DNA of 64,000 nt from an uncultured Bacilli bacterium (GTDB lineage: Bacteria; Bacillota_I; Bacilli_A; RF39; UBA660). Both the position numbers and the translations under genes were made by a program. Where the stretch lies: contig CAKPEZ010000001.1 of NCBI GenBank assembly GCA_934149465.1, positions 135,178-199,177 of the forward strand, given 5' to 3'. Under the pieces are notes generated by a model. The model did not search any database, was not told the DNA's origin, and was given only the letters and a program-made list of their open reading frames with translations. Shown one piece after another: positions 3,864-61,057 of the stretch; the first letter of the stretch is position 1; every line of letters starts with the position of its first letter.

Positions 3864-3926
3864 TAATATTTAAGCATATTTTAAATAAATTTTATACTCA
3901 TTCGACATATCTTTTCAAAAAAATCA

Positions 3927-31512: not shown

Positions 31513-32448
31513 CTACTTTAACACTATTCCTATTAAATCAGTGCCTTTAATTCCATTTAAATAATCTCTTACTAAAGTCTTTTTCTTTCCTTCAAGCTGA
31601 ATTTCTAATATTTTTAAGGCACCATCACAAGTTTTAATAATTATTCCATCTTTGGTAATATCAACTATTTCCCCATTTTCTCCATCATACTTTTTATTAA
31701 GTATTTCTGTTCTAAAGATCTTTATTCTTTTATTTTCTAAATAAGCATACGCTCCTGGATTAGAATTAAGCCCCCTAATTAAATTAAAAATATCTCTAGT
31801 CTTTTTAGTAAAATCTATTTTCTCTTCTTCCTTAGTAACATTTAATCCAAAAGTTACTTCATCTTCTCTTTGTTTAATTCTTACATTGGTCCCATTAATA
31901 ATAGATGGAAGCGTATCTAATAATAAATCTCTTCCTAAAAAAGACATTTTTTCATACAAACTATCTAAATATTCATTATCATCTATCAGAATTTCCCTAG
32001 TTGCAATAATATCTCCGGCATCCATTTTTTCATTCATATACATAACGGTTACTCCTGTTTTATCATAACCATCAATAAGAGCATGATGAATTGGTGCTCC
32101 ACCTCTTAGTTTAGGAAGAATAGATCCATGAACATTAATTGCCCCTAATCTAGGAAGATCTAATAAAGCTTTAGGAATAATTTGACCATAAGCACAAGTT
32201 ATAATCAAATCAGGATGAACTTCTACTATTTTTTCATAATCTTTTCTAATTTTTAATGGCTGAAAGACTTCTATATTATTTCTAATAGCAAGTTCTTTTA
32301 CTGGAGAATAAATAATATCTCCTTTTCTATTTCTTTCATTATCTGGTTGACATACAACTAAACTAACACTATATTTTGAAAGTATTCCTTCTAAAACATT
32401 TGCTGCAAAAGAAGGAGTCCCCATAAAAACTATCTTTAAATTTTTCAT
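31513..32448 (-). CDS. fmt: Methionyl-tRNA formyltransferase
   Basis: 311 aa (IVFMGTPSFA, HGSILPKLRGGAPI). Confidence 0.9.
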   Translation of the reverse strand: MKNLKIVFMGTPSFAANVLEGILSKYSVSLVVCQPDNERNRKGDIIYSPVKELAIRNNIEVFQPLKIRKDYEKIVEVHPDLIITCAYGQIIPKALLDLPRLGAINVHGSILPKLRGGAPIHHALIDGYDKTGVTVMYMNEKMDAGDIIATREILIDDNEYLDSLYEKMSFLGRDLLLDTLPSIINGTNVRIKQREDEVTFGLNVTKEEEKIDFTKKTRDIFNLIRGLNSNPGAYAYLENKRIKIFRTEILNKKYDGENGEIVDITKDGIIIKTCDGALKILEIQLEGKKKTLVRDYLNGIKGTDLIGIVLK

Positions 32449-32462
32449 CTAATCACCTTTTT

Positions 32463-34163
32463 CTAATAATATACTGTCGAACACTGTCTACTTGAAGAAG
32501 ATGAACATGAAGAAGTAGTATCTTCCCAGCTACTCCAGCTGTCGCATCCACAAGAAGAGCAGCTTCTATTATTTACTGAGCAACCACATACTGATCCAGT
32601 TCCTTGATTATAAGTATCACAGCCACATGATGAGTTTCGACAAGATTTATAAGTTGCACAACTACATGATGAACATCTTTTATAAGTTATACAGCTTCTA
32701 CGAAATTCAGTACAACGCCTACTATTCCCACTTCCAGAACAAGTTATTTTATTGTATTCGTTAGAACTTGAAGAACCATCTGCTCCATAAGTTGAGCCAA
32801 TTTTTTTCCATGCACTATAAGTTTCACAGCCACAAGCAGAACAACGATTTCTAGTTTCACATCCACAAGAACTATTTCGGCAACTAGAATAAGTTTGACA
32901 TCCAAAACTAGAGTCTCTACAAGTAGCATAAGTATCACATCCAGCACTAGAACAACGACTACAAGTGTTGCAAGTTCTAGTTTGTGTTCTATTTTCTATT
33001 GATACATCACATGTTCCTTCATTCCCCGCTGCATCAATTACAGTATAAGTAGTATTTTTTTTAACATTATTATATGGGTATTCTTTAATTAAATCATTAG
33101 TTTCATTAAAACCACTCTTATCATCAATGGCTTTTACAGTAACTAAAACACCACTGGAAGATCCATCTCCTTTTGAAGTAGTACAAGTAGGAGAAGTAGT
33201 ATCAATAAGACCTATCGCTAAAGAATTACTCTTATTATTAATTCCATCAGTCGTCTTAGCTTGAATTACATATTCCCCTTCTTTATCATAAATATATTTA
33301 TATATAAGATTACTATCTGTCTTAGTTAAAAGAGAATCATTCTTAACATTAATCCACTCTCCTGATACATTCATTCTATAAAAATGATCTAAATTATTAT
33401 TTGGATCATTATAAGTAATAGTAACCGTCTTAGTTTTAGACCATCCTTTTTCTAAAGTTTCTATAATAGGTGCTGATATATCATTTAAACTTTGAGTTAA
33501 AGATTTAGTAGCTTCTTTATGACCTTTATTTACACATTTAGCTTCTAATTTTAGTAACTCATCACTTTTTAAATTATCAAATGTTAAATGCTGAATAATA
33601 TTTTTACTATTATCTACATTGATTCTAATAAACTGATTAGTCTTTAAATCTTTATATTCTAAATATGCTAAATTTGAATTAGAATTAGAGCAAATTAAAT
33701 CATAATCAATAGACTTAGTAGTAGTAATAATATTTTCAAAATCAATATTTGGATAAGAAGAATCAAAAGTACAAGTACCCTTTTCATTAATTATCTCATA
33801 TATTTTATTTTGATTAGGTTCCATAGTAACTAAGATTTTCTTTGTTTCACCAAACTCATTTACCTTATCATTAGTTTTCTTTATATAACCTTTATCAGCT
33901 AACTCTTTTACAGTAATACATACTTGTTTATAACCATCACCAGTATCTTCCCAATTAACATTTTCAGGGTATTCTTCTACATACAAAGAAGCAGATTTTT
34001 TAATATTCATCGCAAATAAATTATCTGATTTTTCTTTCTCAAGATCAAGTAATTTTATTACAGAAGGAATAGTAAAAGATAAAATTAAAGCAAGAACCAA
34101 TACTCCCATTAATAACTCGATTAAAGTAAAACCCTTTTTCTTTTTCATAAAAAAACACCTCAT
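32463..34163 (-). CDS. Large prepilin-type (type IV pilin-like) protein with a cysteine-rich repetitive C-terminal tail
   Basis: N-terminal KKGFTLIELLMGVLVLALIL is a class III (prepilin peptidase) signal. The last ~170 aa hold about 28 Cys in repeated xCGC(D/E)TY-like units. The stop is 14 nt upstream of the fmt start. Confidence 0.7.
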   Translation of the reverse strand: MRCFFMKKKKGFTLIELLMGVLVLALILSFTIPSVIKLLDLEKEKSDNLFAMNIKKSASLYVEEYPENVNWEDTGDGYKQVCITVKELADKGYIKKTNDKVNEFGETKKILVTMEPNQNKIYEIINEKGTCTFDSSYPNIDFENIITTTKSIDYDLICSNSNSNLAYLEYKDLKTNQFIRINVDNSKNIIQHLTFDNLKSDELLKLEAKCVNKGHKEATKSLTQSLNDISAPIIETLEKGWSKTKTVTITYNDPNNNLDHFYRMNVSGEWINVKNDSLLTKTDSNLIYKYIYDKEGEYVIQAKTTDGINNKSNSLAIGLIDTTSPTCTTSKGDGSSSGVLVTVKAIDDKSGFNETNDLIKEYPYNNVKKNTTYTVIDAAGNEGTCDVSIENRTQTRTCNTCSRCSSAGCDTYATCRDSSFGCQTYSSCRNSSCGCETRNRCSACGCETYSAWKKIGSTYGADGSSSSNEYNKITCSGSGNSRRCTEFRRSCITYKRCSSCSCATYKSCRNSSCGCDTYNQGTGSVCGCSVNNRSCSSCGCDSWSSWEDTTSSCSSSSSRQCSTVYY

Positions 34164-34200
34164 ATTTACAATTTCATTATATCATCTCTATATAAGATTA

Positions 34201-34238
34201 TCAAGAAAAAAAGAAACAAAAGTAATTTACTTGTTTCT
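34201..34238 (-). terminator. Rho-independent terminator after the lipoprotein gene
   Basis: 7-bp stem agaaaca/tgtttct overlapping the stop codon, with a T-run on the minus strand. Confidence 0.4.
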
Positions 34239-34676: not shown

Positions 34677-35279
34677 TTACTCATCACAAGTAGTACAACT
34701 ATTTAAGTTAGCTTCTTCAACCATAGTCTTAAGACGATTCTTTAAATCATTTTTCTTCTCTTCAGTCCAATATTCACTAGGAGTTATTTCTCCATCAATA
34801 ACTGAAGTTTCATTATCATGACTTAAGATTTTTCCTTCTTTAACAATCGTCACATCTGGAACAGTAACTCTTTCATTACCTTCTTTATCTTTAGGAAGAT
34901 AATCTTTTAAAATACTAACTATCTTTTGATAATTTTCCGTATTGGCTTTCCTTATATCTTTAATATTATAGTAATATATCTCTTCTATTCCAGATTCTTT
35001 TGCTACTTCATTTAACATAGGGGCATAAGCTTGACACCAAGGACACTCTGGAAACCCAAAAAATACTATTCCAGTTCCACCTTCTAAAATTTTGATTATT
35101 TCTTCATCAGTACGATAAACAAAGATATTATCTTCTCCTACCTCAGTATAATCTAAGCTAAACTTTTTAGCGTCACTTACCTCACTCTTACTAGTAAAAG
35201 CTGTATATAAGCATATTCCAACTATTACTACAAGTAATATCCCTAAAAATTTTAAATCATTAAGTGTTTCTTTTTTCAT
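34677..35279 (-). CDS. Membrane-anchored extracytoplasmic thioredoxin-like thiol-disulfide oxidoreductase
   Basis: 200 aa. N-terminal TM, thioredoxin motif FGFPECPWCQAYAP (CPWC), and a second C-terminal CTTC pair. Confidence 0.7.
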   Translation of the reverse strand: MKKETLNDLKFLGILLVVIVGICLYTAFTSKSEVSDAKKFSLDYTEVGEDNIFVYRTDEEIIKILEGGTGIVFFGFPECPWCQAYAPMLNEVAKESGIEEIYYYNIKDIRKANTENYQKIVSILKDYLPKDKEGNERVTVPDVTIVKEGKILSHDNETSVIDGEITPSEYWTEEKKNDLKNRLKTMVEEANLNSCTTCDE

Positions 35280-35355: not shown

Positions 35356-36852
35356 TTACCCTCTTAATGATTTATTTAATCTTCTTTTATTAAATGATAA
35401 AGCACAAAAAGTAAATACCATTAATGATGAAATTCCAAATATCAAATAGAAAATAAGATCATCACCAGTTTGCGGATTATTAACTACATTAATAGTTTTT
35501 TCTGCTAAAGTATAAACACTAAAGTGATTAGTAGTAAATGTAGCATAGCCATCTTTTACAGTAGCATCATGCTCTTCAAGTTTTCCTTCTTCGTTAACAT
35601 AATAAACTGCTAATACTTTTCCTTCTAATTCTGAAGGAACTGGCATAGTTACTTCAAATATACCATTATCTAACTTAGTAATATTAGCATTTTTAACATT
35701 AGAGTATAAACTTAAATCAATAGAATATAAATTATTTTGTTTTAAGATATTCTTAATATTAAGATATTCTTCTCCATCTTTATTTAAAAGATATGCTTTT
35801 ATCATTGTATCAAGTGGAATACTACTTTCTTTAGAAGTTATTGTAATATCTTTATCTAAGTTTTTAGCAGAAAAGATAGGTTCACTCATTTTACTAGAGT
35901 CTGCTACTATTAAAAAATCTACAGTAAAATCCCCAAAATTAAATATATAAGTATGATCAGTTGTTTTAGTTAAATCAGCTATTTCAGAAAAATCCATAGC
36001 GCCTTCATACTCATCATCATAATGATCAAAAGAATATCCTTTAGTAATAGTTATTTTATTATTTGGCATATATTCTTTTAATCTTTTAGTTGCAGCTTCT
36101 ATTAAAGCTTCATCAGTAAGTTCTGTATCACTTGGTACATATAGTATTTCTTCTGGTTTAGCACCTACTTTATCCTGAGAAGCATACGCAACTCCATTAT
36201 AACTAACAACAAGTCCGCCAAAAGCAAGTGTTCTAAACGGTAAATAATTAACTCCTGCTCTAACATCTATTCGATAAGTTAAATCAGCATTTTCAAAAAA
36301 CTTTTTCACATCATCAGTATAATTAGTTATTTTTCCAAATTTTTCGTTATCCAGTTCTCTTGTATTAGCAGTCACGTAATAGTTAATTAAATTTAAATCC
36401 GTTAGTTTAAACAAATATTGATTATAATACCCATTCTCATCTTTTCCTTGAATATTAGCAAGTTTTTCAATATAAGAATCAACATTCTTTTTAACTAAAG
36501 TATTTGCATCTTGCCATTTTATAGCAACATCATATTCTTTATGAATATATGGATTAGATGAAGTAATAAGAAATTTACATTCTATATTATTATCACATTC
36601 TATTCCATAATTAATTCCTTCAGAAGCATATTTACTACTCCATACTTCATAATAAGAAGAAGCAAAAAAATCATATTCTACAAAATTCTTAGGTTTAACT
36701 GAATTAAATTCAAACGTTCCATTAGGTGCTTCTAACTTATAAATTTCCTCCATTCTCTTTAAAACATCTGCTTCATCTGCATTTACTTTCGTAACTCCTA
36801 TCAATAAAAACGCTACAAAGATAAACGCAAATAATTTTACTACTTTTTTCAT
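35356..36852 (-). CDS. Cell-wall-anchored surface protein with an NPQTG sortase sorting signal
   Basis: Signal peptide MKKVVKLFAFIFVAFLLIGVTKVNA. C-terminal NPQTGD, then a hydrophobic stretch and the RR/K tail NKRRLNKSLRG. The start is probably the internal Met with a signal peptide. Confidence 0.55.
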   Translation of the reverse strand: MKKVVKLFAFIFVAFLLIGVTKVNADEADVLKRMEEIYKLEAPNGTFEFNSVKPKNFVEYDFFASSYYEVWSSKYASEGINYGIECDNNIECKFLITSSNPYIHKEYDVAIKWQDANTLVKKNVDSYIEKLANIQGKDENGYYNQYLFKLTDLNLINYYVTANTRELDNEKFGKITNYTDDVKKFFENADLTYRIDVRAGVNYLPFRTLAFGGLVVSYNGVAYASQDKVGAKPEEILYVPSDTELTDEALIEAATKRLKEYMPNNKITITKGYSFDHYDDEYEGAMDFSEIADLTKTTDHTYIFNFGDFTVDFLIVADSSKMSEPIFSAKNLDKDITITSKESSIPLDTMIKAYLLNKDGEEYLNIKNILKQNNLYSIDLSLYSNVKNANITKLDNGIFEVTMPVPSELEGKVLAVYYVNEEGKLEEHDATVKDGYATFTTNHFSVYTLAEKTINVVNNPQTGDDLIFYLIFGISSLMVFTFCALSFNKRRLNKSLRG

Positions 36853-36947
36853 TATATCACTCCTCCTATCATAAGAATAGCACACTTTATTTCTTTTTCA
36901 TAGACTTTTTTTAATAAAAAAAATCACTTTTGTAAAGTGATTTTTGA

Positions 36948-38462: not shown

Positions 38463-40220
38463 ATGTTTAAAGAAATTACTTCAATTAGTAAGAACTACGC
38501 TATTGTAAAACTTAAAGATAATATTAATGAAGATCTTCTTAATTTAAACGCCATTTTTGAAGAAGAAGATAAAAAAATATTAGGAGAAATAGAAGAAGTT
38601 ATCGATAAAAGTGCTAAAATAACTTTTTTAGGAGAATTTAATAATGGGAAATTTTTTAGTGGAATAATTAGAAAGCCTAGTTTAAATGCTAGTATTAGAT
38701 TAATAAACGAAGAAGAACTTAATGAGTTAACTCAAGAAAATGATCCATACTCTATGCCACTTGGATCTTCTCCATTATATAATAATTGTAAAATTAACGT
38801 AAATATTGATAATCTATTTAGTAACCATACTGCTATTTTCGGAAATACCGGTAGTGGTAAAACTTACGGAGTTGCTAGACTAGTTCAAAATTTATTTACT
38901 TTAAAAGATAAAATTCCATTTAACAGCAATTTCTTTATCTTTAATAATACTAGTGAATATGATAATGCTTTTAAAGAAATAAATAAGTATAACGTTAACT
39001 TTAATTATAAAGCTTATACTACCAGTGATACTACCCAAAATAATAGCATCAAAATTCCATTATGGCTATTAAGTGCAGATGATTATGCTAATTTATTAGA
39101 TGCCACTGAATATTCACAAATAAGTGTTATTGAGAAAATGCTTAGTTTAGTTTCTGTATTTGCTAGAGATGATAAAGAAGCACATAGATATAAAAATCAC
39201 CTAATAGCAAAAGCCATTCTTTCTATCTTATATTCTAACCAAATGCCTGCTAGAATGCGTGATCAAATATTTACAATCGTTGAAGAATGCCATACTGAAG
39301 AGTTAAATCTAGATTTTGAAGTACCAGGAGTTGGTTATACTAGAGAATTTAGAAAATGTTTTGAAATAGATAGTCAAGGACAATTCGTTGAAAGAGTATT
39401 AATTACTGAATATATTCATAAGTTCATTGATAATGATACTAAATGGAAAGAAGATTTTATACCAGTATATTTTACCTTAGATGATCTAGAAACTGCTTTA
39501 AATTTTGCTCTTATTAGTGAAGGATTATTATTAAATGAAAAATCTTATGCTGAAGGAATTGCTTTAAAAGTAAAGCTTCATACCTTAAATAACAGCAGTT
39601 ATCATAGATTCTTTGATTATCCAAATTACTGTACTATTAATGAATTTATTTCTAGTATTATCTTAGTAAACAGTAATAAAAGAGCCCAAATTATTAACTT
39701 TATCTTAGAAGATGTTGACGATAGATTTGCTAAAGCATTAGTAAAAGTATATTCTAGAATATTATTTAGATTTACTAAAGGATTATCTAATAGAGGCGCT
39801 ATGCCAATTCATATTATGTTAGAAGAAGCTCATCGCTACGTTCAAAAAGATCTAGATAATACTATCTTAGGATATAATATATTTGAAAGAATTGCTAAAG
39901 AGGGAAGAAAATTTGGTTTAATTTTAGATCTAATTACACAAAGACCTACTGAATTATCAGAAACAGTTATCTCACAGTGTAGTAACTTCTTAATATTTAA
40001 AATAAACCACCCTACTGATTTAGAATATATCAGAAAGATGGTTCCTAATATTAGTGCTGATGTTATTGAAAAGCAAAAAACTCTTCAATCAGGTACCTGC
40101 GTAGCGTTTGGTCCAATGATGAAAATTCCAACTATTGTTAAAATGGATCTTCCCTCTCCTGAACCTCACAGCGCTAATGCTAAAATATATCAAAAATGGA
40201 TGGTTGAATGGAAACAGTAA
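38463..40220 (+). CDS. HerA/FtsK-superfamily ATPase (DUF87-like)
   Basis: 585 aa. N-terminal barrel-like domain, Walker A GNTGSGKT, Walker B HIMLEEAHRY (DEAH-type), and TQRPTEL arginine-finger motif. Confidence 0.65.
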   Translation: MFKEITSISKNYAIVKLKDNINEDLLNLNAIFEEEDKKILGEIEEVIDKSAKITFLGEFNNGKFFSGIIRKPSLNASIRLINEEELNELTQENDPYSMPLGSSPLYNNCKINVNIDNLFSNHTAIFGNTGSGKTYGVARLVQNLFTLKDKIPFNSNFFIFNNTSEYDNAFKEINKYNVNFNYKAYTTSDTTQNNSIKIPLWLLSADDYANLLDATEYSQISVIEKMLSLVSVFARDDKEAHRYKNHLIAKAILSILYSNQMPARMRDQIFTIVEECHTEELNLDFEVPGVGYTREFRKCFEIDSQGQFVERVLITEYIHKFIDNDTKWKEDFIPVYFTLDDLETALNFALISEGLLLNEKSYAEGIALKVKLHTLNNSSYHRFFDYPNYCTINEFISSIILVNSNKRAQIINFILEDVDDRFAKALVKVYSRILFRFTKGLSNRGAMPIHIMLEEAHRYVQKDLDNTILGYNIFERIAKEGRKFGLILDLITQRPTELSETVISQCSNFLIFKINHPTDLEYIRKMVPNISADVIEKQKTLQSGTCVAFGPMMKIPTIVKMDLPSPEPHSANAKIYQKWMVEWKQ

Positions 40221-42953: not shown

Positions 42954-43820
42954 CTAAAATAAAGTTAACTGCGTACTATCCATGCTTTTATATTCATGCA
43001 TATACTTAAATAAATAATCTATATCATAAATAATATTATTCTTTTGACATATCTCTTTTATTAGATTTAAAAGATAAGCATTATTATCACTAACTACTTC
43101 GTAAGAATAAGCATATTTCTTAATATATTTATTTTTTAAGTCTTTAAAATATTTATCTAACTTTTCATAATAATATTCTCTATTTCCTTCTCTTAAAGTT
43201 AGACCTATATTAAAACAAATTACTCCAAATACATGAGATTTTACTATGTAATCAAGAAGTCCTATAATATTTTCTTTATTATCATTAATAAACGGTAAGA
43301 AAGGATCAAGCCATACTATCGTCTTAATATTATTCTCATCTAATATCTTAAGTACTTCATATCTTCTTTTACTAGAGCAAACATTAGGTTCTAATATTTT
43401 ACATAAATCTTCATCATAAGTAGTAAGCGTTATATTAACAATACACTTACTATGAGTATTTATCTCTTTTAATAAATCTAAATCTCTTAAGATAAGATCT
43501 GACTTAGTTTGAATACTAACACCGCATTTATATTTATTAATAATTTCTAATGCTCTTCTAGTATAAAGAAGTTTTTTCTCATGATGAAGATATGGATCTG
43601 ACATAGCCCCAAAACTTACCATACATCTTTTTCTTTTAGAAGATAATTCTTTTTCTAATAATTCTAAAGCATTTTCTTTTACTAAAATATCTTCAAAATC
43701 ATGATCCATATTATAGCATTTACTTCTAGAATCACAATATATACATCCATGAGTACAGCCTCTATATATATTCATTCCATTATCTTTACTTAATAAACCT
43801 TTTACTTTTTGATAGTGCAT
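42954..43820 (-). CDS. Radical SAM protein (SplB/COG1533-like)
   Basis: 288 aa. GCTHGCIYC matches the CxxxCxxC cluster. Confidence 0.55.
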   Translation of the reverse strand: MHYQKVKGLLSKDNGMNIYRGCTHGCIYCDSRSKCYNMDHDFEDILVKENALELLEKELSSKRKRCMVSFGAMSDPYLHHEKKLLYTRRALEIINKYKCGVSIQTKSDLILRDLDLLKEINTHSKCIVNITLTTYDEDLCKILEPNVCSSKRRYEVLKILDENNIKTIVWLDPFLPFINDNKENIIGLLDYIVKSHVFGVICFNIGLTLREGNREYYYEKLDKYFKDLKNKYIKKYAYSYEVVSDNNAYLLNLIKEICQKNNIIYDIDYLFKYMHEYKSMDSTQLTLF

Positions 43821-46208: not shown

Positions 46209-47510
46209 TTATATATCTAAATTATCAATATATTCTAGTAAATAAAGAGGAATATTAATTATCTTACCATCTTTACTTAAGTTATTTAAAGAAAATCTAA
46301 AAGCAAATTCATTATCATTACTAGAATTATATTTAGTTAAACTATTATGATTAGTACTTTTATCAGACTTTACTTCAATAGGAATAATTTTATTTTTTCT
46401 TTGAATAACAAAATCTATTTCATTTCGATCAAAAGTATAATAATTAGGTGCTTCTCCATATAAATATTTTAATACATTAGCAACATAGTTCTCTGTAAAA
46501 GCGCCTTTAAACTCTAAAAGAAGCTTATTTCCTTCTAAAAGAATGCTACTATCTAAGTCAGCCATTCTTCTAAGTAAGCCAATATCATTCATATAAATTT
46601 TATATGCTGATAGATCTTGATATCCTCTTAAAGGAAAAGCACATTTATTTACAAGATAACACTTAGATATAAGATCAGCATCATTTAACCAGTTTAAAGC
46701 ATTTTCATACTCTCTAGCACGTGCTCCTTCTTTTATTACCTGATATACAAATTTTTTATTTTCTCTTGCTAACTGAGAAGGAATACCATTCCAAATTAAA
46801 GAAACTTTATTAGCTTCTTTAATATCTATATGCTTTGAAAAATCATTCTCATAAGATAACAAAATATTTTTCTGAATTTTATTTACTTTCTCAATATCTT
46901 TATCATTTACCCAGCTATATACAACTTCAGGCATTCCACCAACAATATAATAAGTCTTTAATTTTTCAATAAGTTTACTCTCGAATATTGCTGGTATTTC
47001 TTTTATTTCTTTAGTTTGTTTCATAACTTCTACTAAATTCTCTAAATGATCAGCTTCTAAAAACTCACTAAATGTCATAGGATATAAATTTAGAAAATCA
47101 ACTTTTCCAACTGGAAAAGATGTTTTAGAAAGTCTTATTCCAAGTAATGATCCAGCACAAGCAACATGATAATTAGAAGCTTCTTCACAAAAGTATTTCA
47201 AAGAATTAAGTGCATTAGGACACTCTTGTATCTCATCAAATATAATAAGAGTACTACCAGGATTTATCTTACTTCCATTTACTAAAGATAATTGTTCAAT
47301 TATTCTTCTAGGATCTTTCGTATTTAAAAATAAAGAAGCTAAGCCATCATCATGATCAAAATTAAAGTATGCTACATTATCATAATTGTTTTCGCCAAAC
47401 TCTTTTAATATATAAGTCTTTCCAACTTGTCTAGCTCCTTTTAAAATAAGAGGTTTCCTCTCTTTACTATTTTTCCATTCTACTAATTTTTCAGTAATAT
47501 ATCTTTTCAA
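46209..47510 (-). CDS. AAA+ ATPase of the DUF4143/COG1373 family
   Basis: 433 aa (ILKGARQVGKT Walker A, IIFDEIQ Walker B). Confidence 0.6.
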   Translation of the reverse strand: MKRYITEKLVEWKNSKERKPLILKGARQVGKTYILKEFGENNYDNVAYFNFDHDDGLASLFLNTKDPRRIIEQLSLVNGSKINPGSTLIIFDEIQECPNALNSLKYFCEEASNYHVACAGSLLGIRLSKTSFPVGKVDFLNLYPMTFSEFLEADHLENLVEVMKQTKEIKEIPAIFESKLIEKLKTYYIVGGMPEVVYSWVNDKDIEKVNKIQKNILLSYENDFSKHIDIKEANKVSLIWNGIPSQLARENKKFVYQVIKEGARAREYENALNWLNDADLISKCYLVNKCAFPLRGYQDLSAYKIYMNDIGLLRRMADLDSSILLEGNKLLLEFKGAFTENYVANVLKYLYGEAPNYYTFDRNEIDFVIQRKNKIIPIEVKSDKSTNHNSLTKYNSSNDNEFAFRFSLNNLSKDGKIINIPLYLLEYIDNLDI

Positions 47511-47683
47511 TCAGATCATCTCCTATTAGTATTATATCACATTTTTGCAAATAAATTTCATCTTTTTATCACACTTTTACAAAGAAAAAGTAATAAATGA
47601 TCACACTTTTGTAAAAAGCAATCATTTATTACTTGTTAAAGTTTTGGAAAAATATTTCCAAAAGATCTTGAAACAGATTATAC

Positions 47684-48718
47684 TTATTTTCTAATATATT
47701 TACATCTTGGATAATTACCACATCCAATGAATGAACCATACTTTCCTTTTCTTATTTCAAGTTTATGACCACACCTAGGGCAAATCATATCATTTTCATA
47801 ATCAATATCCATCTTATTGCTTTTTCCTCTATTACACCTATCACATAAAGTTTGAAGATTGCTCATAACTGTTTTACCACCTCTAGATACTGGTATAATA
47901 TGATCAACGTGTAACTTAACTCCATCTCTACTAGTAGCGCCACATATCTTACAAGTATAATTATCTCTTTTAAGAACGTTATACCTAATTTCGCTATTCA
48001 TAATTTCTCTTTCTCTTTTAATACTTTCTTTATATTTACCACCATTTAACCATTCATTATAATAACTAACTAATTCTTCAAAATTATAATTACCATTCTT
48101 TTTAATATAAGTATTTCCTTTATTACTTTCGTAATATGCTTCTACTTTAAGTGTTATCAAAAAATCATTCTTAGTATAAATAATCTTTCTTAATATTTTA
48201 TCTTCTACCCTCTTATATTTCTTATCAGTATAATTACTTTCATTAACAAATTCTTTCTTTAAAACATCTTCTATATCTTTCTTATAATCCCAAAGTAAAT
48301 TAATATTATATAAAGCATTTTCTATATCAGTTCTAAGATAATTTACATTATTTTCGATATTATACATAATAATACTATAACCAGTAACTCTATCTAAACT
48401 TCTTCTAGAATATTCTCTTTCTCTTATAAAATGCTTATTATTAGTAATTTCTCTAAATACATATTTATTATTTATTAGAGTAATCTCTTTTATCTTAGGA
48501 CTTATCTCTTTAACATATTCTTCTTCTCTTTTAATATATTTTTTAATAACAAAAAAATATATTAAAAGAGGAAGTATCAAAAAGATTAAAACAATTATAC
48601 TAAGTGTATCTTCATCTTCTATTATAACTCCAAAAAACATAGTTCCAATTAATGCACTAAAATAACAAGCAATTCCTAATAAAATACCTTTTTCTATTTT
48701 ATTCACGTATAATACCAC
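47684..48718 (-). CDS. Membrane-anchored HNH endonuclease with a topoisomerase-type C4 zinc ribbon
   Basis: Two N-terminal TMs. HNH motif CKICG...HVDHIIPVSRGG...NLQTLCDRCN, then CPRCGHKLEIRKGKYGSFIGCGNYPRCKYI, near-identical in pattern to the topA zinc ribbons. Confidence 0.6.
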   Translation of the reverse strand: MVLYVNKIEKGILLGIACYFSALIGTMFFGVIIEDEDTLSIIVLIFLILPLLIYFFVIKKYIKREEEYVKEISPKIKEITLINNKYVFREITNNKHFIREREYSRRSLDRVTGYSIIMYNIENNVNYLRTDIENALYNINLLWDYKKDIEDVLKKEFVNESNYTDKKYKRVEDKILRKIIYTKNDFLITLKVEAYYESNKGNTYIKKNGNYNFEELVSYYNEWLNGGKYKESIKREREIMNSEIRYNVLKRDNYTCKICGATSRDGVKLHVDHIIPVSRGGKTVMSNLQTLCDRCNRGKSNKMDIDYENDMICPRCGHKLEIRKGKYGSFIGCGNYPRCKYIRK

Positions 48719-48791
48719 ACTTCCTATATTATTAAAAAAAAGATCATAATTTTCTTTTTTAAAACTACAATCTTTTATAAAATATTATTTT

Positions 48792-50414
48792 TTAACTTAC
48801 TACTAGTTTATATGGATTATCACTAGTACCAGTTGTTGCTCCATCTATATTCGCATTAGATTCTAGATAAAGGACCGGGGCCGCGCCACAATCAATATAC
48901 ACGAGGGAGTTGCTGAGGTTGTTCACATGCCCAGGGGAAAACACATTCCACGCAAAGTAAGAATAGCCAGAATTAGGCGGTAATAACCAATTATAGGAAC
49001 TACTAAAAATTGATTTCATCCAGTTGGTGCTTGTACAAGAAGTATTATCATAATCAAATAAATTTTGTGTACAGCTATTAAAGTCGGCGGCATATCCATA
49101 ATCACTTGCATAAGGAAGAGCAACATATCCTTCCCAAGTAGAAGAAGCATAAGGATTAGTTCCTAGTTTTGTTCCTCTTTCGTATTCATACATTTGATCT
49201 GAATATACCTTAGGACTATCATATCCTCCTAGATAATATAATGTCTTAGATATTAAATTTCTTGTTTGATCGTTTTTTAAGCCTGTTTTAGTAAAATCAC
49301 AGGTCTTTGTTGCATTACTTTCTCCATTATAACAAGTTCCTGATCCTGCATTATAATATAGACTATTATTTACTTTTATTGATGAGCCGCTACTATTTAA
49401 ATCAGTATTATCTGAATATCCTGGATTTAAAAGCTTCATTAAGTCAGCTCCTTTATAATCACCGTTTTCTCCCCACTGATTATATCCTTGTCCAGAGTTT
49501 ACCGTACTTGCTGATGTATCCCAAGAATAATTACCTATTACACTATTACGAATTAGTTTGATCTTACCATCAAATACTCCAATAATACGCCATACTTCAC
49601 AAGTAGATGATGTTTGATTAGAATAATCATCACAGTTAAAGTAAATATAATTATTAGGATTTGCTCCATAATATCTAACATTACCTGCTATATCACTTAT
49701 TAGATTATGATCAGTATCAAGATGATATACAATACCATTATTTGAAGCATCTGTTTTAGTACTATTTAGATAATTACTTACAATATTATATGCTAATGAA
49801 TTAGTAGTTGTTTGAGTAATATCAGGAATTTTTCCTTCTCTTATAATTGCATTTTGTCCATCAGCATGTAAACTAAATTTATAAGATTGATTTTTCATCA
49901 TTGTACTAGGATTTTCCATAGTACCATCAACCCATACATATAAAGTATAAGTAGTAATACTAGTAGATATTAATTCATTTTCTAATAATACTACATGTTT
50001 CTTAGTACTATCTATATTACAAGTTACTGCATTATTATTTATATATTCATCAGTAAAGTTTCCTTCCTTTACTAAAGTAGATCCCTTATATAAAGCAAAT
50101 TTAAAACTCTCTTCGTTTAAGTTTTCTCCTAGTTCAATAATATCAAAATATAAATTAAAAGATAATTTATTAGAAACACTTCCCTTTATTTTGATATTCT
50201 TAACTATTCCTTCTTCTTTAGTAGCAGTTGGTTTTAAATTTGCTTGATTAATATCTCCACCACCATCTAAATATATAGTAGCAGCCCCTAATGAAGTAGA
50301 GATCTTAGTTTCTTCACCACTACTAGTAGTCCATACATAATAAGCATATGTTCCACCTATTACTGCAATAGTTATTAACAAAGTAATTAATGCTATTTTT
50401 ATATTTCTATTCAT
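48792..50414 (-). CDS. Secreted protein: SipW-cognate-type signal, TasA-like N-domain, Cys-containing C-terminal extension
   Basis: 540 aa. Signal ...GGTYAYYVWTTSSGEE; N-domain ends with TYTLYVWVDG; the ~350-aa extension has paired Cys (CDDYSNQTSSTC, CYNGESNATKTC, CTQN...SC). Confidence 0.5.
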   Translation of the reverse strand: MNRNIKIALITLLITIAVIGGTYAYYVWTTSSGEETKISTSLGAATIYLDGGGDINQANLKPTATKEEGIVKNIKIKGSVSNKLSFNLYFDIIELGENLNEESFKFALYKGSTLVKEGNFTDEYINNNAVTCNIDSTKKHVVLLENELISTSITTYTLYVWVDGTMENPSTMMKNQSYKFSLHADGQNAIIREGKIPDITQTTTNSLAYNIVSNYLNSTKTDASNNGIVYHLDTDHNLISDIAGNVRYYGANPNNYIYFNCDDYSNQTSSTCEVWRIIGVFDGKIKLIRNSVIGNYSWDTSASTVNSGQGYNQWGENGDYKGADLMKLLNPGYSDNTDLNSSGSSIKVNNSLYYNAGSGTCYNGESNATKTCDFTKTGLKNDQTRNLISKTLYYLGGYDSPKVYSDQMYEYERGTKLGTNPYASSTWEGYVALPYASDYGYAADFNSCTQNLFDYDNTSCTSTNWMKSIFSSSYNWLLPPNSGYSYFAWNVFSPGHVNNLSNSLVYIDCGAAPVLYLESNANIDGATTGTSDNPYKLVVS

Positions 50415-50419
50415 TATTA

Positions 50420-50962
50420 TTACCTACTTTCTGCTTTCATAGTTATTTTTCCTTTATAATTTGAAGATAATATTTGATCTTTATTCTCATTTGTTACTAA
50501 GCTTCCATCTAACCAAATTGAAACACTATAATTTTTACGATTATAATCTAAAGAGATATTTTCGGCAATCGGAATAGTCCCAGTACTAGTAATAGTTCCA
50601 CTATTTAAAAGAGTTAGATTATTTTCGATAACCTGATATTTTAAAGCTCCGCTTTGTAATAAAGTATTACTTACTGTTTCATCAGTAGTTAAGTATAAAG
50701 TTCCTATTCCTTTATCAATGGAACAATTAGATTTAAGACCAATAATTACATTAGCATATAATCCTCCTCGGTAATCTTCACTCATATAAAGTATTTCTCC
50801 ATTATTACCAATATCTTGTCCTTTAGTATAGTTTATTTCAAAGCATTGCATATCTCCACTAATAGTGCTTTTAAATGCCCAAGTATATATAGCATAAGTA
50901 GAACCTGATACTACTAATATAAGCAAGATTACTGATAAAATAGTTAGATAATTTTTCTTCAT
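50420..50962 (-). CDS. Secreted TasA/camelysin-like protein with a SipW-cognate-type signal
   Basis: 180 aa. Signal ...GSTYAIYTWAF; C-terminal YSVSIWLDG motif. Tandem with paralogs. Confidence 0.5.
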   Translation of the reverse strand: MKKNYLTILSVILLILVVSGSTYAIYTWAFKSTISGDMQCFEINYTKGQDIGNNGEILYMSEDYRGGLYANVIIGLKSNCSIDKGIGTLYLTTDETVSNTLLQSGALKYQVIENNLTLLNSGTITSTGTIPIAENISLDYNRKNYSVSIWLDGSLVTNENKDQILSSNYKGKITMKAESR

Positions 50963-50968
50963 TAGTTA

Positions 50969-51523
50969 TCACCCCTCTACTTGATTTACTTTAGCACTTA
51001 CACTTCCATAATAAGAGCTATAAGCATCAGAATTAGCAACTTTATTATAATCTACCCAAACATATACTTGATATTTAGTAGCACTACTAGAAGAAGAAGC
51101 TTTAGTTAAAGATCCTACATCAATAGTAATAGTTCCATCAGAAGTAATACTTCCCTTTAAATCAGTTACTTTCCCATCTTTTAATACTTGATAATTTAAT
51201 AATCCTTCTCTATATAAGTTAGAACTAGTTTTAGAAGAAGTTGTTAGATATATTTTTCCAGTAGCACTTACATTACATTTATTACTAATGCTCATAAGTA
51301 TTGTAGAAGATAATCCTCCAGTATAATCATTAGAAGGCATTAAAGTAGCTTTATTTTGATCACTTCCTATATCTTGCCCCTTAGTATATAGAATATCAAA
51401 ACATCTAGTAGTACCACTAATAGTACTCTCTCCTACTACTGAAGTAATCCAAGCATAAGTAATACCTACTAATAAAGATATACCAAGTAATATTCCTATA
51501 ATAATATAAATATTCTTTTTCAT
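50969..51523 (-). CDS. Secreted TasA/camelysin-like protein with a SipW-cognate-type signal
   Basis: 184 aa. Signal ...GITYAWITSVVGE; C-terminal YQVYVWVDY motif. First gene of a three-gene tandem. Confidence 0.5.
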   Translation of the reverse strand: MKKNIYIIIGILLGISLLVGITYAWITSVVGESTISGTTRCFDILYTKGQDIGSDQNKATLMPSNDYTGGLSSTILMSISNKCNVSATGKIYLTTSSKTSSNLYREGLLNYQVLKDGKVTDLKGSITSDGTITIDVGSLTKASSSSSATKYQVYVWVDYNKVANSDAYSSYYGSVSAKVNQVEG

Positions 51524-51567
51524 ATGACTTCCTTTCCTATTCTCCTATATAATTATAATAAAATTTT

Positions 51568-51640
51568 ATTAAAAAAGAAAGTACTTTTATATATTTTTAT
51601 TAAAAAAGAAAGTACTTTTATATATTTTTATTAAAAAAAT
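51568..51640. repeat. Perfect 31-bp tandem duplication (2.35 copies) in the promoter region
   Basis: attaaaaaagaaagtacttttatatattttt occurs at 51568-51598 and 51599-51629, followed by a partial third copy. Lies 45-115 nt upstream of the 50969..51523 start. Confidence 0.8.
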
Positions 51641-51659
51641 CACTCAAAAACCCGAGTGA
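51630..51659 (-). terminator. Rho-independent terminator after the HipA-like gene
   Basis: 6-bp stem tcactc/gagtga with an 8-nt loop and a T-run on the minus strand. Confidence 0.45.
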
Positions 51660-51670
51660 TATTATATATA

Positions 51671-52858
51671 TTATTTTTCTATTATATCTTTTAATTTATT
51701 AACTTGTCTATTCAAAATAACACATAGTCTATTTATTCTAGTATCAGAAAATTTTGTTAAATATTGATATTTATGTAATAAGTTATCAAACCATTCAGTA
51801 ATTCCATCTAATTTTTGAATATCAATTCTTTTAATATTCTTTACTATTTTGATTATATCATCAAAAGGCATAACTTCATAAAACAAACGTCCTTCACCAG
51901 AAATATGTAGTTCTTCTTCATCATAATACTCTATGTTAAGACTTTGCCCATTATCAAATATAGGCGCTATACTAAGCCACTTCAAAGTATTTACATCTCT
52001 TATAATTCCGAAGTTATTCAAATGTCTATCTTCATTCATTATTAAATAATCTAATATAAACATATTTTCTAGCTGAATTCTAGCATCACTAATACCTTTA
52101 TTTTCTAGTATTTCTATATATTCTTCATAGTCTTTAATATTACCATATCTATTCATATTATTTTCTATTTGATAACAAGTAATAAGCTCTGTATCTTTAT
52201 TTATAAAACAAGGACATTTTGATAAGACCATATCTTTATAAATAGTTAGAGTATATTCTACATGATTAAAACCAAGTCTATTACATATTTCACTTGCTAA
52301 AGCCTCATTAAAAGGTTGCAATAATTCATTTCTATATCCGCCTTTTAATAAATATCTAGTTTCATTTTCTATAATCCAAGCTTTCTTTAGCATTCCACCA
52401 GTAGTATTATTAGGCGTCTTTAATGCTTCTTTTGTTACTATAGTATTACTATTTTTAGAAAGAGAAGCTTCTAAAAATTCACTATAATCAAAATCATTAT
52501 CAAAAAAGTTAATATTATCATAAATAATATCTATATCATATGGTTTTATCCAATATTGATCTGATAATGATAATCCAAACGCTTTATCTAATAATTCACT
52601 AGGAGCACTTATATCTAATCTATGTAAAAGGAAATCTAATTTATCACGCCATGCTGGAATACCACGTCCTTTAAACCATTCAGATAAATTAGTTCTAAAA
52701 GAAGTATCATTAATATTATCTTTATTATAAATTTTTTCTAAAATATATGGCGCATAATTAATATTATAAACTTCATATATATAAGTAAATACCCCTGTTC
52801 CAGAATCATACTCAGCAGATAATACTTTAGTATTTTTATTCATAAGAATACATTTCAC
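51671..52858 (-). CDS. HipA-like Ser/Thr kinase domain protein
   Basis: 395 aa. DYLIMNEDRHLNNFGII matches the HipA_C catalytic motif (D-x-H-x-x-N-F). GTG start. No hipB-like HTH gene adjacent. Confidence 0.55.
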   Translation of the reverse strand: MKCILMNKNTKVLSAEYDSGTGVFTYIYEVYNINYAPYILEKIYNKDNINDTSFRTNLSEWFKGRGIPAWRDKLDFLLHRLDISAPSELLDKAFGLSLSDQYWIKPYDIDIIYDNINFFDNDFDYSEFLEASLSKNSNTIVTKEALKTPNNTTGGMLKKAWIIENETRYLLKGGYRNELLQPFNEALASEICNRLGFNHVEYTLTIYKDMVLSKCPCFINKDTELITCYQIENNMNRYGNIKDYEEYIEILENKGISDARIQLENMFILDYLIMNEDRHLNNFGIIRDVNTLKWLSIAPIFDNGQSLNIEYYDEEELHISGEGRLFYEVMPFDDIIKIVKNIKRIDIQKLDGITEWFDNLLHKYQYLTKFSDTRINRLCVILNRQVNKLKDIIEK

Positions 52859-52943
52859 TTAGGAATCATCTCCTTTGTTATATATTGTACCATGGATACT
52901 TTAAGATGTAAATTGATGAAAAAAAACTCAATAAAGTTATATA

Positions 52944-53000
52944 AAAACCGAGGGAAAAACTAAATACATATTCACATATGTTTAGTAATTCCTCGGTTTT
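52944..53000 (-). terminator. Long hairpin terminator after the AbiL-like operon
   Basis: Perfect 10-bp outer stem aaaaccgagg/cctcggtttt enclosing an imperfect inner palindrome. T-run on the minus strand. Confidence 0.5.
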
Positions 53001-53040
53001 ATAGTATTAATTACAGTCTAAACTCTTTATTTACAGTTTA

Positions 53041-58510: not shown

Positions 58511-59272
58511 TTACGCTATTAAGGATAACAAATTCTCAAAGCTAAATCCACTTATATATAAAATAAGAGCAGCTATACTAAGAAAAGGCCCAAAAGGTAT
58601 CATATGATCTTTTCTACTAAGAAGCACATATATTGAAAAAGGAAATGCAATAAAAGTTGCTAAAAATATACTCATAACAGCTTCACTAAATCCTAAGACC
58701 ATTCCAAATAACAGCATTAATTTAATATCTCCCCCACCTAAAGATTCTTTCTTAAAAAAATAATCTCCAACTATTTTCAAGAAAAGCATAAGTAAAAATG
58801 AAAATAATCCAGAAAATAATACTGTAAAAGCAGTATCAAATCCTTTAAAAATAATATTAGTAATAAGTATTAAAATCATTGCTAAAAAAATAACTTCATC
58901 TAAAATAATCATATACTCAATATCACTTACAATTACAATAATTAAACTAGATACAAAGATAAGTGATATTATTAAATCAGGGGTAAACTTAAAAACATGA
59001 TAACATACAGCAAATAAAACCCCTGTAACAAGTTCAATTAAAAAACTACTAAAAGGTATTTTTTCTTTACAATAATGGCATCTTCCTTTCATAAAAAGAT
59101 AAGAAAAAAGAGGAATTAAATCATACCATCTAAGCTTACTATGACAATAATCACAATGAGAAGAAGGATAAATTATTGATTCCCCCTTAGGAAGACGTGT
59201 TGCAACTACTCCATAAAAAGATCCCATTACAATTCCAAAGATAAAAAACACTATCAAAAAATATATTTCCAT
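58511..59272 (-). CDS. pilD: Prepilin peptidase (A24 family)
   Basis: 253 aa. N-terminal Zn-binding CDYC...CHYC and the GGGD catalytic-region motif. Confidence 0.85.
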   Translation of the reverse strand: MEIYFLIVFFIFGIVMGSFYGVVATRLPKGESIIYPSSHCDYCHSKLRWYDLIPLFSYLFMKGRCHYCKEKIPFSSFLIELVTGVLFAVCYHVFKFTPDLIISLIFVSSLIIVIVSDIEYMIILDEVIFLAMILILITNIIFKGFDTAFTVLFSGLFSFLLMLFLKIVGDYFFKKESLGGGDIKLMLLFGMVLGFSEAVMSIFLATFIAFPFSIYVLLSRKDHMIPFGPFLSIAALILYISGFSFENLLSLIA

Positions 59273-59284
59273 AAATCCCTCTTC

Positions 59285-61057
59285 CTACATAACTTGATCA
59301 TATATACTAAACATTGGAATAACAACAGAAAGTAAGATAATTCCAACAATAACCGCAAGTGCTACTATCATAATTGGTTCAATTAAACTTTTTAACTGAG
59401 ATACAATCATCTTCTGATGATCCTGATAATAATTAGCAACCGTCTGCATCATGTCACCCATTCTACCAGTTTTCTCACCAGTTACCATCATTTCATAAGC
59501 AGTACTAGGAAAAGCCCATTGATTCTTAAAAGCAACACTTATTCCTTCACCTGCTTTTAAATTAACAATAGCATCCCCTATCATACTCTTATAAATTTCA
59601 TTATTAGTAATCTTTCCTAAGATCTCCATACTATCAGTAATAAATACATCATGATTAGTCAAAGACGCAAAAGTCTTAGTAAACATAATAATCTCACTAT
59701 CCATAATAACTGTCTTTACTATAGGAAGATGAAGCATAGTCCACTGAACTGCATATCTAAAATTCTTAGATCTCTTATAAAGAAATACAAACAATAATAT
59801 ACATGCCAATACTCCTAGTAATATATATATAAAGTTATTTTTTAAAAACAAGCTAAAATCAATAATTGCTAAAGTAATACCAGGAAGCTCTGCTCCTGCA
59901 GTAGCATATATATCAACAAACTCAGGAACAATAAATAAAATAATAAAAGTAATAATAGCAATCGCAATAACAAAGATTACTGAAGGATAAGTCATTGCTG
60001 TAATAATTTGTCTTCTATTAGCGTCCATTGTTCTATAATAATCAGCCATATCATCAAGTACTTCAGTTAACTGTCCAGTCATCTCAGCAGTCTTTACCAT
60101 ATTAATAAGAAGTTTAGGAAAAACTTCTCCTTGTTTAATAAGTGCTTCACTAAAACTAAGCCCAGTATTAAGTTCATAAATAATTCTCTCATAAACACGC
60201 TTTTCACTTTTTTTCTTAGTTTGTTTACTCAAGATCTTAACTGAATCTATAAGCGTAATACCTGCTTTAATATAAGTAGAAAGCTGTGTTAAAAAAAACT
60301 CTAACTGTTTAGGCTTCATCTTCTTACCAAAAGTAAATTCAGCTAATTTAAAAGTATTCGCAAGCTTATCTTCATCAATACGATAAACTTCATAACCTTG
60401 GCTTAATAAAAATGAATGAACTTCTACTTTTGAATAAGCATCAAAAGAGCCCTTAATAATATTCCCATCAGTATCTCCAACTAAATAAGTATAACGTATT
60501 TTCTTCTTATTAACTCTTGTATCTAAAGTAGAAAAATCTAAAATAACTCTTTGTTTTTCAAGTTTTTTATTTATTTTCTTTTGTTTTTCTAAACGCACTT
60601 CTTCTTTACTTAGAATCTTCTTTTTTTGTTTTACCTTCTTAGGAACAATCTTCTTTTTAGGGCCATCTCCATAAATATCCTGATTAATAATACTCTGATC
60701 TACTTCTGGAATTACCTCTTCCTTCTTAGGAGTAATACTATTAAGAACATCTTCTTTTTTTCTAATAATCTTACTTTCTGGAATATCTACATTACTAGAA
60801 TTCTCAGAACTATTACTATTTTCTTCAAAATCACCCATATTCATATTAACTTTATTAGGAAGAGAAACCACTACTTTATCATCTTTCTTTAAAGAAGCAT
60901 TATAATCACTAATATCTTCTTTTCTTTTCTTCTTTCTTCCTATATAAAAAGGAAAAGTAATAATATCACATAAAACATTATAAATAACTGTCTCTATCTT
61001 ATAAACGAGTCTGAAAGGAAAAAGAAGTACTTTCAAAATAATATTCATAAATAACAC
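59285..61057 (-). CDS. pilC: Type II secretion/type IV pilus platform protein (GspF/PilC family) with a ~190-aa N-terminal extension
   Basis: 590 aa. Two GspF repeats (TAEMTGQL, TGEKTGRM) and 3 TMs, preceded by a TM plus a Lys-rich disordered extension. Confidence 0.75.
   Translation of the reverse strand: MLFMNIILKVLLFPFRLVYKIETVIYNVLCDIITFPFYIGRKKKRKEDISDYNASLKKDDKVVVSLPNKVNMNMGDFEENSNSSENSSNVDIPESKIIRKKEDVLNSITPKKEEVIPEVDQSIINQDIYGDGPKKKIVPKKVKQKKKILSKEEVRLEKQKKINKKLEKQRVILDFSTLDTRVNKKKIRYTYLVGDTDGNIIKGSFDAYSKVEVHSFLLSQGYEVYRIDEDKLANTFKLAEFTFGKKMKPKQLEFFLTQLSTYIKAGITLIDSVKILSKQTKKKSEKRVYERIIYELNTGLSFSEALIKQGEVFPKLLINMVKTAEMTGQLTEVLDDMADYYRTMDANRRQIITAMTYPSVIFVIAIAIITFIILFIVPEFVDIYATAGAELPGITLAIIDFSLFLKNNFIYILLGVLACILLFVFLYKRSKNFRYAVQWTMLHLPIVKTVIMDSEIIMFTKTFASLTNHDVFITDSMEILGKITNNEIYKSMIGDAIVNLKAGEGISVAFKNQWAFPSTAYEMMVTGEKTGRMGDMMQTVANYYQDHQKMIVSQLKSLIEPIMIVALAVIVGIILLSVVIPMFSIYDQVM

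Follow-up and report, generated by a model that had tools for sequence, protein, structure and literature searches.

A gene on the reverse strand of a 64,000-nucleotide (nt) stretch of contig CAKPEZ010000001.1 from an uncultured Bacilli bacterium (the window, by which the whole stretch is meant) encodes a large, exceptionally Cys-rich prepilin. We read it, with a probability of roughly 55%, as a modular type IV pilin in which a pilin head, three immunoglobulin (Ig)-like spacers and a disulphide-laddered stalk would present a variable knob. By sequence and predicted fold the protein belongs to the class of modular type IV pilins, its processing and polymerization being predictions. The class is known, and the effector module would be new, representing a domain or fold family not described so far. 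One confident AlphaFold2 (AF2) model and comparative statistics are the basis of the structural and functional claims made here.

The longest open reading frame (ORF) at the locus runs from 32463 to 34163 on the reverse strand (566 residues) and contains the prepilin gene. The ORF had been recognized in the original prediction, but the protein is probably shorter, since translation is likely to begin at the second ATG (34148, M6 of the 566-residue frame), giving a product of 561 residues that starts MKKKKGFTLIELL. This start is favoured because a ribosome-binding site 7 nt upstream of it overlaps the first ATG, and the same start is chosen by gene callers on independent assemblies of the gene. 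The promoter-like sequence directly upstream matches the sigma-70 consensus at 11 of 12 positions and has an extended −10 element. The identical 561-residue protein is found on 12 independently assembled metagenome contigs, human gut samples among them, and orthologues at 37–57% identity share the prepilin architecture; the ORF is therefore not a fusion artefact, and the frameshifted joining of two genes, raised earlier as an objection, is excluded. The 14 nt separating the prepilin gene from fmt were correctly given in the original prediction. A nested ORF (32744–32947), on the same strand in another frame, does exist and had been ascribed to DNA repetition; the DNA repeat is weak, however, and codon composition suffices as an explanation, with no sign of a real gene. 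GC content rises locally to 37% at the tail because of its Cys, Gly and Ser codons.

The N-terminus is a class III signal peptide with predicted cleavage after Gly6, leaving a mature chain that begins FTLIELLMGVLVLALILSF and has Glu at position +5. Both N_methyl of Pfam (E = 7e-6; 25.8 bits against a cut-off of 21.2) and TIGR02532 (23.6 bits, cut-off 16.3) match above their curated cut-offs, which confirms the prepilin signal first read by eye, and the motif is unique to this gene within the window. The protein is indeed far larger than ordinary pilins. A full-length AF2 run with a 10-sequence alignment [mean predicted local distance difference test (pLDDT) score 74] places a helix at residues 9–59 and head strands up to residues ~121–125 in the pilin module (pLDDT 75–87, model only). 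Three Ig-like sandwiches, which are confident in the same model (pLDDT ~90), follow; the first and third contain the Cys pairs 153/205 and 322/380 respectively. A structure search, as had been suggested, was run with Foldseek on the full-length model, and against the PDB it returned generic tandem-Ig proteins only.

The tail (residues 386–561, 176 residues) contains 28 Cys (16%), 42 Ser and 19 Thr, so that Ser, Thr and Cys make up 89 of the 176 residues, together with 10 Tyr, 3 Trp and 2 Phe; the earlier estimate of about 28 Cys in the last ~170 residues was exact. The first 385 residues hold 6 Cys, bringing the exported total to 34, and the other ORFs of the window average 0.89% Cys. The residue autocorrelation of the tail has its peaks at lags of 13 and 11 residues (z = 5.2 and z = 2.9, respectively, relative to 2000 shuffles). 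The repeat unit is C-x-x-S-S-C-G-C-x-T-Y-x-S (13 residues), with a short form C-S-x-C-G-C-x-T-Y-x-x (11 residues), and each unit keeps a conserved Gly and a Tyr or Trp. The repeated units described in the original prediction are thus real at the protein level, with a 13-residue period, but weak in the DNA: Tandem Repeats Finder detects no tandem array in the tail DNA, and self-blastn of this DNA gives matches of only 29–39 nt at 77–86% identity. The repeat is therefore maintained at the protein level.

A second AF2 run on the third Ig-like domain and the tail (19-sequence alignment) produced one confident model of five (mean pLDDT 80; tail residues 78–94). In this model all units look alike: C-x-T-Y forms a strand of four residues, the chain turns at the first Cys, and S-S-C makes a 3-10 turn. 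The pairing of the tail Cys and that of the arms are inferred from the comparisons below.

For the chemistry of the tail Cys, disulphides are favoured over metal binding because of the even Cys parity, the paired gain of Cys454 and Cys478, a nearby CPWC thioredoxin and the strand/turn repeat predicted by AF2. Both options had been offered in the original prediction. The number of exported Cys is even in all 16 of the 16 full-length Cys-tail prepilins (range 30–44); P0021 has the lone odd total (37 Cys), one of its Cys being in the membrane helix. Y454C and R478C always occur jointly: among 10 distinct conspecific alleles seven have C/C, three Y/R and none a single change. Seventeen tail Cys are invariant across orthologues at 37–58% identity. 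Each unit has three Cys positions, at two of which relatives have Phe and Val; these are core hydrophobics, and the positions are therefore structural and not ligands.

The predicted thioredoxin-fold protein, PedC-like and membrane-anchored, is encoded two genes upstream of the prepilin; an N-terminal transmembrane segment and the CPWC motif are visible in its sequence, and TIGR01295 (PedC/BrcD) matches it with E = 6e-7 (29.5 bits, below the cut-off of 120). The block PedC-like/lipoprotein/pilin/fmt is conserved in three species, the window and two further ones, whereas the upstream flank differs. In the two further species the identities are 68% for the PedC-like protein, 51–57% for the pilin and ~70% for fmt, and no terminator is predicted inside the block. 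Given this conservation, a recent insertion of the pilin gene upstream of fmt, which the wording of the original prediction suggests, is not supported. PedC is a putative thiol-disulphide oxidoreductase that improves the potency of pediocin (PMC4919988). By gene order, the PedC-like protein is a candidate oxidase or isomerase for the 34 exported Cys. The arrangement resembles those of PedC/BrcD with pediocin-type bacteriocins (PMC4919988) and of MdbA with the sortase pilins of Actinomyces and Corynebacterium (PMC9974433), where a membrane-anchored thioredoxin-fold CxxC protein is likewise next to, or required for, a secreted Cys substrate. Here the substrate would contain 17 putative disulphides, not one or two, and it is of the type IV class, whereas the pilins served by MdbA are sortase-assembled.

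Strain variation is concentrated in the insert that separates the two arms of the tail. The original prediction had noted neither the two arms and the hypervariable knob nor the thioredoxin neighbour and the distant prepilin peptidase and PilC-like genes. Among the 561-residue alleles, 12 of the 42 insert positions are polymorphic, compared with 15 of the other 519 positions (odds ratio 13.4, Fisher p = 4.9e-8). The DNA of the window is 98.4–99.5% identical to that of the strains with a 563-residue allele over 10.3 kb, except for one non-alignable cassette (~125 nt; 131 nt in the other strain) which coincides exactly with the insert. Blastn with word size 7 found no second or silent copy of the tail DNA in the window, and there is no reverse transcriptase among the Pfam families listed for it. 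The target of a diversity-generating retroelement was considered and rejected, as the window holds no template copy and the alternative knob differs in length (125 versus 131 nt) and is unalignable.

Across 22 relatives the unit counts of the N- and C-arms correlate (Spearman 0.63, p = 0.002); P0015, for instance, has 7+7 units, and P0005 between 8+8 and 8+10, according to the way of counting. Matched arm lengths and an arm-specific consensus would be expected if the arms pack together with the insert at the far end. We infer such a packing of the two arms, and regard the knob as a putative binding or antigenic tip. In P0003 (locus L095), P0006, P0038 and P0055 the inner units are swapped for C.TGSPN.CVGGY...SC and the first and last units and the cap are kept; judged from these sequences, the rod has a conserved base and an exchangeable distal part. 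A separate case is P0061 (86 residues, on five contigs), in which an in-frame deletion joins NWEDT (residues 65–69) to SWEDT (541–545), so that the Ig domains and the entire repeat rod are lost; either a genuine deletion at microhomology or an artefact of assembly is possible.

Table 1. Coordinates of the prepilin gene, its parts and associated features in the window.
Feature	Position	Strand	Remarks
Modular prepilin gene	32463..34148	−	561 residues; stop codon 32463–32465
Ribosome-binding site GAGGTG	34156..34161	−	7 nt before ATG 34148; overlaps ATG 34163; read from sequence
Sigma-70-like promoter TTGATA-17-(TG)TATAAT	34176..34204	−	Directly upstream of the prepilin gene; consensus match only
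Class III signal peptide	34059..34148	−	Residues 1–30; leader MKKKKG, predicted cut after Gly6, FTLIE, hydrophobic α1-N
Rest of pilin module	33774..34058	−	Residues 31 to ~125; remainder of α1 and small β-sheet head; Cys77, Cys126
Three Ig-like β-sandwich spacers	32961..33749	−	Residues 134–220, 228–315, 321–396
Tail N-arm	32814..32972	−	Residues 393–445; ~4 units of the 13/11-residue Cys repeat
Central insert ('knob')	32688..32813	−	Residues 446–487; strain-hypervariable; unrelated sequence in the 563-residue allele type
Tail C-arm	32529..32687	−	Residues 488–540; ~4 Cys-repeat units
C-terminal cap W..W....SCS.SSS..C.T.YY-COOH	32466..32528	−	Residues 541–561; W, C and YY invariant; AF2 pLDDT ~80–88
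Lipoprotein, 144 residues	34227..34661	−	Between thioredoxin and prepilin genes; 32% identical counterpart in L011, 136-residue gene at the same position in L095
PedC-like membrane-anchored thioredoxin-fold protein, CPWC	34677..35279	−	Two genes upstream of the prepilin; PF20207 precomputed match
Promoter of the PedC-like gene	35332-35304	−	Perfect consensus match
Prepilin peptidase	58511..59272	−	A24_N_bact (E = 3e-33) and Peptidase_A24 (E = 1e-12); expected to process the signal
PilC-like platform protein (T2SSF)	59285..61057	−	Lys/Glu-rich N-terminal extension of ~190 residues; assigned by sequence inspection and adjacency to the peptidase

In the model that we propose, the MKKKKG leader would be removed by the prepilin peptidase, and the hydrophobic N-terminal helix would anchor the protein in the membrane or insert into a type IV filament, where the size of the protein makes a place as a rare or tip subunit the most likely. 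The three Ig-like domains would be spacers leading out from the small pilin head, and the C-terminal 170 residues would form a thin rod of 13-residue units, in which the chain would run along an outward arm (~4 units) into a 42-residue β-rich knob and come back through a return arm (~4 units) to the aromatic cap. All 28 tail Cys would lie in disulphides stapling units and arms, made or proof-read outside the cell by the CPWC thioredoxin. The knob, surface-exposed, fast-evolving and strain-specific, would be a ligand-binding or antigenic tip; it might serve adhesion to host, diet or other cells, or be a target of phage or immunity. Its probable role is that of a device for adhesion or recognition specific to the strain.

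Pilins of modular build that display effector modules at the tip of the pilus form an established class, and many of their effector modules are invisible to domain databases (PMC8179133). Streptococcus sanguinis PilB and PilC and CofB of enterotoxigenic Escherichia coli (Raynaud et al., 2021; PMC8179133) likewise consist of a class III signal, a small pilin module and C-terminal modules. Their bulk implies a tip or low-abundance placement, as here, and they bind ligands; the extra modules of CofB, like those described here, are not recognized by domain databases. The present protein differs in its effector, a Cys-stapled rod of 13-residue repeats with a variable knob, not a von Willebrand factor A, lectin or β-repeat domain, in the location of its gene outside any pil operon, and in its 34 exported Cys, which are exceptional for a monoderm low-GC bacterium.

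Several observations weigh against this reading. The window contains neither a T2SSE ATPase nor a major pilin, and the prepilin gene stands alone among housekeeping genes, which leaves its incorporation into a pilus a prediction. The repeat arms have pLDDT < 35 in the full-length AF2 run, and the other four models of the third Ig-like domain and tail score only 58–66. The alleles are not phylogenetically independent, and the paired Cys gain is possibly one haplotype event. The bacterium lives in an anoxic habitat, and neither DsbB nor VKOR was identified in the window as a re-oxidant. A search of the PedC-like protein (34677–35279) against Pfam with hmmscan gave no PF20207 match, the assignment consisting of the precomputed match, the sub-threshold TIGR01295 match and the CPWC motif. 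The PedC-like gene is also absent from the available flanks of the distant relatives P0004, P0006, P0008, P0012 and P0048, and its linkage to the pilin may therefore be plain synteny within one clade.

The main rival differs from a modular pilin only in how the protein is presented. The class III signal would serve for export and membrane anchoring alone and the protein, never polymerized, would stand on the surface as a stalk, with the structure and function of the tail as set out above. Archaeal substrate-binding proteins carrying prepilin signals offer a parallel. Such a stalk is consistent with the orphan gene having its own putative promoter between housekeeping genes, with the missing ATPase and major pilin, and with a family size (561–1264 residues) well above that of filament-forming pilins; a sortase-type surface protein as neighbour also suggests a surface-protein neighbourhood. 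Glu5 and the canonical α1-N, however, matter mainly for filament assembly, and both are retained. A PilC-like platform gene lies beside the prepilin peptidase gene (of the 40 ORFs scanned, a single one matched T2SSF). These two genes are 25 kb from the prepilin, alone near ftsZ and without an adjoining assembly ATPase or pilin. Relatives occur in tandem with other large prepilins, and modular pilins of comparable size are pilus-borne (PMC8179133). On this evidence an unpolymerized stalk is unlikely, although it is the alternative to be taken most seriously.

It is improbable that the tail is a metal-binding or redox module (metallothionein-like, or binding Fe-S, Zn or Cu) that sequesters or senses metals, or transfers electrons at the surface, with its Cys reduced in the anoxic gut. 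Frequent CxC and CxxC motifs, the Cys content of 16%, the anoxic habitat and the window without an identified DsbB or VKOR are all compatible with this idea. The tail Cys counts (26, 28, 30 and 32), however, are even and not multiples of 4, Cys are gained in pairs, and Phe and Val replace them in relatives; moreover, a regular β repeat is predicted by AF2, every unit has Gly and Tyr or Trp, unlike metallothioneins, and a putative thiol-disulphide oxidoreductase is encoded alongside. Metallothioneins have roughly 20–30% Cys or more, few or no aromatics and no regular secondary structure, and their Cys are ligands. With 16% Cys, 15 Tyr, Trp or Phe, a strict period, a predicted strand per unit and Phe/Val substitution, the tail was rejected as a member of that class, and the likeness to metallothioneins or keratin-associated proteins pointed out in the original prediction is compositional only.

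Still less probable is cross-linking in the cytoplasm, as in ribosomally synthesized and post-translationally modified peptides (RiPPs), by thioether, sactionine or lanthionine bridges from Cys to Ser, Thr, Asp or Glu. The extreme Ser, Thr and Cys content and a radical S-adenosylmethionine (SAM) gene at 42954–43820 could be cited for it, but this gene is 10 kb off, beside guanylate kinase and outside the conserved block, and LanB/LanM, a cyclodehydratase or a SPASM maturase is next to none of the family members examined. Even Cys parity is unexpected for Cys-to-Ser/Thr bridges, and prepilins are inserted unfolded through Sec, with which prior cross-linking is incompatible. A RiPP precursor was rejected, as no maturase (radical SAM/SPASM, LanB/LanM, YcaO) lies in the conserved block or beside eight other family members. 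We attach hardly any weight to the spore-appendage idea of the original prediction, a coat or appendage fibre with intermolecular disulphides like the Ena fibres of Bacillus cereus, for which SpoVAD and SpoVAC in the organism and the Cys-rich connectors of Ena fibres (PMC10397575) might speak: neither Pfam nor NCBIfam gives an Ena/DUF3992 match at E up to 1, on which ground an Ena-type subunit was rejected, or a match to any other spore protein, the promoter is sigma-70-like, the neighbours are vegetative housekeeping and surface genes with no sporulation context, export by a prepilin signal is a vegetative-membrane route, and the paired Cys gain in the knob points to an intramolecular bond.

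Relatives of the tail were sought by an exhaustive phmmer search; an earlier word-index search with the tail alone had given a single match. At E ≤ 1e-3, 36 of 1.84 billion representative proteins match the tail, and 'hypothetical protein [Tenericutes bacterium]' is the sole source annotation. No Pfam or NCBIfam model covers the tail in any member tested, in agreement with the earlier statement that it is not a recognized pilin domain. Foldseek found nothing in the BFVD viral structure library, no PDB match extended over the tail, tblastn gave no tail match in phage and plasmid collections, and nothing relevant was found in the literature on Cys-rich pilins or 13-residue Cys repeats. The carriers are prepilins of 445–1264 residues, often in tandem pairs; it also occurs on proteins that have a Sec signal and lack a pilin module, such as P0005, P0038 and P0042, with glycine-rich domains in P0005 and P0038. 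A degenerate DNA pattern located nine further loci in Joint Genome Institute (JGI) metagenomes, all low-GC, and a contig scan with the orthologue alignment found no pilin relative among 185,579 GTDB species representatives.

The same 13-residue period and N-arm/insert/C-arm layout are seen in a distant set of uncharacterized proteins (P0017, P0019, P0020, P0022-26, P0028 and others), with four to five 'CGVExYxxGxGxV' units, an insert of 50–110 residues and four to five 'CRxxSFGVExYxx' units in exact 13-residue spacing. HHalign relates the Cys-tail family to this set with 96% probability (E = 3e-9). These proteins have one Cys per unit, compared with three in the pilin family, and Phe or Val at the other Cys positions; their carriers are lipoproteins, a ricin-lectin protein and proteins with large N-terminal domains without a Pfam match.

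Some individual loci add to this picture. In L105 (1349-bp contig, 43% GC) the Cys-repeat module and knob lie in the middle of the protein and not at the C-terminus, and its mobility may exceed what one would conclude from the pilin family. In L012 a second large prepilin (3158–4618, 486 residues, Bact_surface_Ig-like) follows P0004 and has a tail of different Cys/Ser/Thr/Tyr-rich repeats (SYSYSCSE..., CTGTRSTTC...). Small Cys-pair lipoproteins of 102–134 residues flank the large prepilin genes in L012 and L099. A 613-residue prepilin in L020 was rejected as a scaffold-gap artefact.

Two systems offer partial likenesses. The antifreeze protein of Tenebrio molitor is a disulphide-bonded tight β-solenoid of 12-residue TCTxSxxCxxAx repeats; it has in common with the tail the short (12–13 residue) Cys/Ser/Thr-rich repeats and would, on the structure proposed here, also share one strand per unit, a disulphide ladder and a thin rod. 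The tail differs in that a unit can have three Cys, that a knob is inserted between two arms and that its function is unrelated to ice binding. Bovine antibodies with an ultralong third complementarity-determining region of the heavy chain (CDR-H3) have a two-stranded stalk and a small disulphide-rich hypervariable knob, with Cys number varying in pairs. The analogy is of a long stalk presenting a small hypervariable knob with paired Cys variation; sequence, organism and scaffold are unrelated, and here allelic replacement or mutation takes the place of somatic diversification.

We suggest, tentatively and as a possibility open to real doubt, that the tail is the first example of a hitherto undescribed class of extracellular fold, a two-arm disulphide-laddered rod of 13-residue units showing a small hypervariable knob. 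Such a module would be mobile between type IV pilins, Sec-secreted glycine-rich proteins, lipoproteins and a ricin-lectin protein, and would serve strain-specific recognition in a gut lineage, with a dedicated thioredoxin folding 14 or more disulphides in bacteria thought to avoid exported Cys. The tail appears to be a compact, modular scaffold, for which the libraries searched held no family model or structural match, and it might be engineered to display short variable domains. Its strain-variable tip makes it a candidate for setting the specificity of individual strains for host, diet or phage in an uncultured lineage of the human and animal gut, and the protein adds to the modular type IV pilins catalogued from monoderms. 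Cys is reported to be excluded from the exported proteins of aerobic Firmicutes (PMC2823432). With its 34 exported Cys and a thioredoxin neighbour, the present surface protein is a clear outlier to that pattern, and it suggests that some anaerobic Bacilli of the gut can depend to an important degree on oxidative folding.

The window encodes SpoVAD and SpoVAC, which agrees with the earlier view that the organism sporulates, as well as D-Ala-D-Ala ligase, penicillin-binding proteins and a sortase-type substrate; this gene content therefore indicates a walled, spore-forming organism, a member of an unrepresented lineage of gut Bacilli. The Obg protein of the window is at most 62% identical to those of 'uncultured Bacilli bacterium' metagenome-assembled genomes (MAGs) from rabbit and goat gut, followed by Tenericutes, Acholeplasmataceae and Coprobacillus MAGs, and none of 80 Obg loci has a Cys-rich prepilin.

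Downstream of the pilin, fmt (window 31513–32448) is called as ORFs of 42 and 262 residues in two otherwise identical strains (L002 11701–12598, L003 5643–6540); a gap of ~32–38 nt relative to the window lies just inside its 5′ end and may be a truncation polymorphism. Upstream of the PedC-like gene, 35356–36885 (−) encodes a protein of 498–509 residues without a Pfam family, which has a signal peptide and, as a sortase-type sorting signal, NPQTG, a hydrophobic stretch and KRR; a terminator-like hairpin (35365–35350) follows the gene. Farther away, 46209–54717 (−) is a series of genes of the defence or toxin type, which encode an AAA_14/DUF4143 ATPase, an HNH endonuclease with a Top1-type zinc ribbon, a HipA_C kinase and an AAA_21 (AbiEii-like) ATPase, possibly a defence island, and a DUF87 (HerA/FtsK-like) ATPase at 38463–40220 (+) lies on the opposite strand of an otherwise co-directional region.

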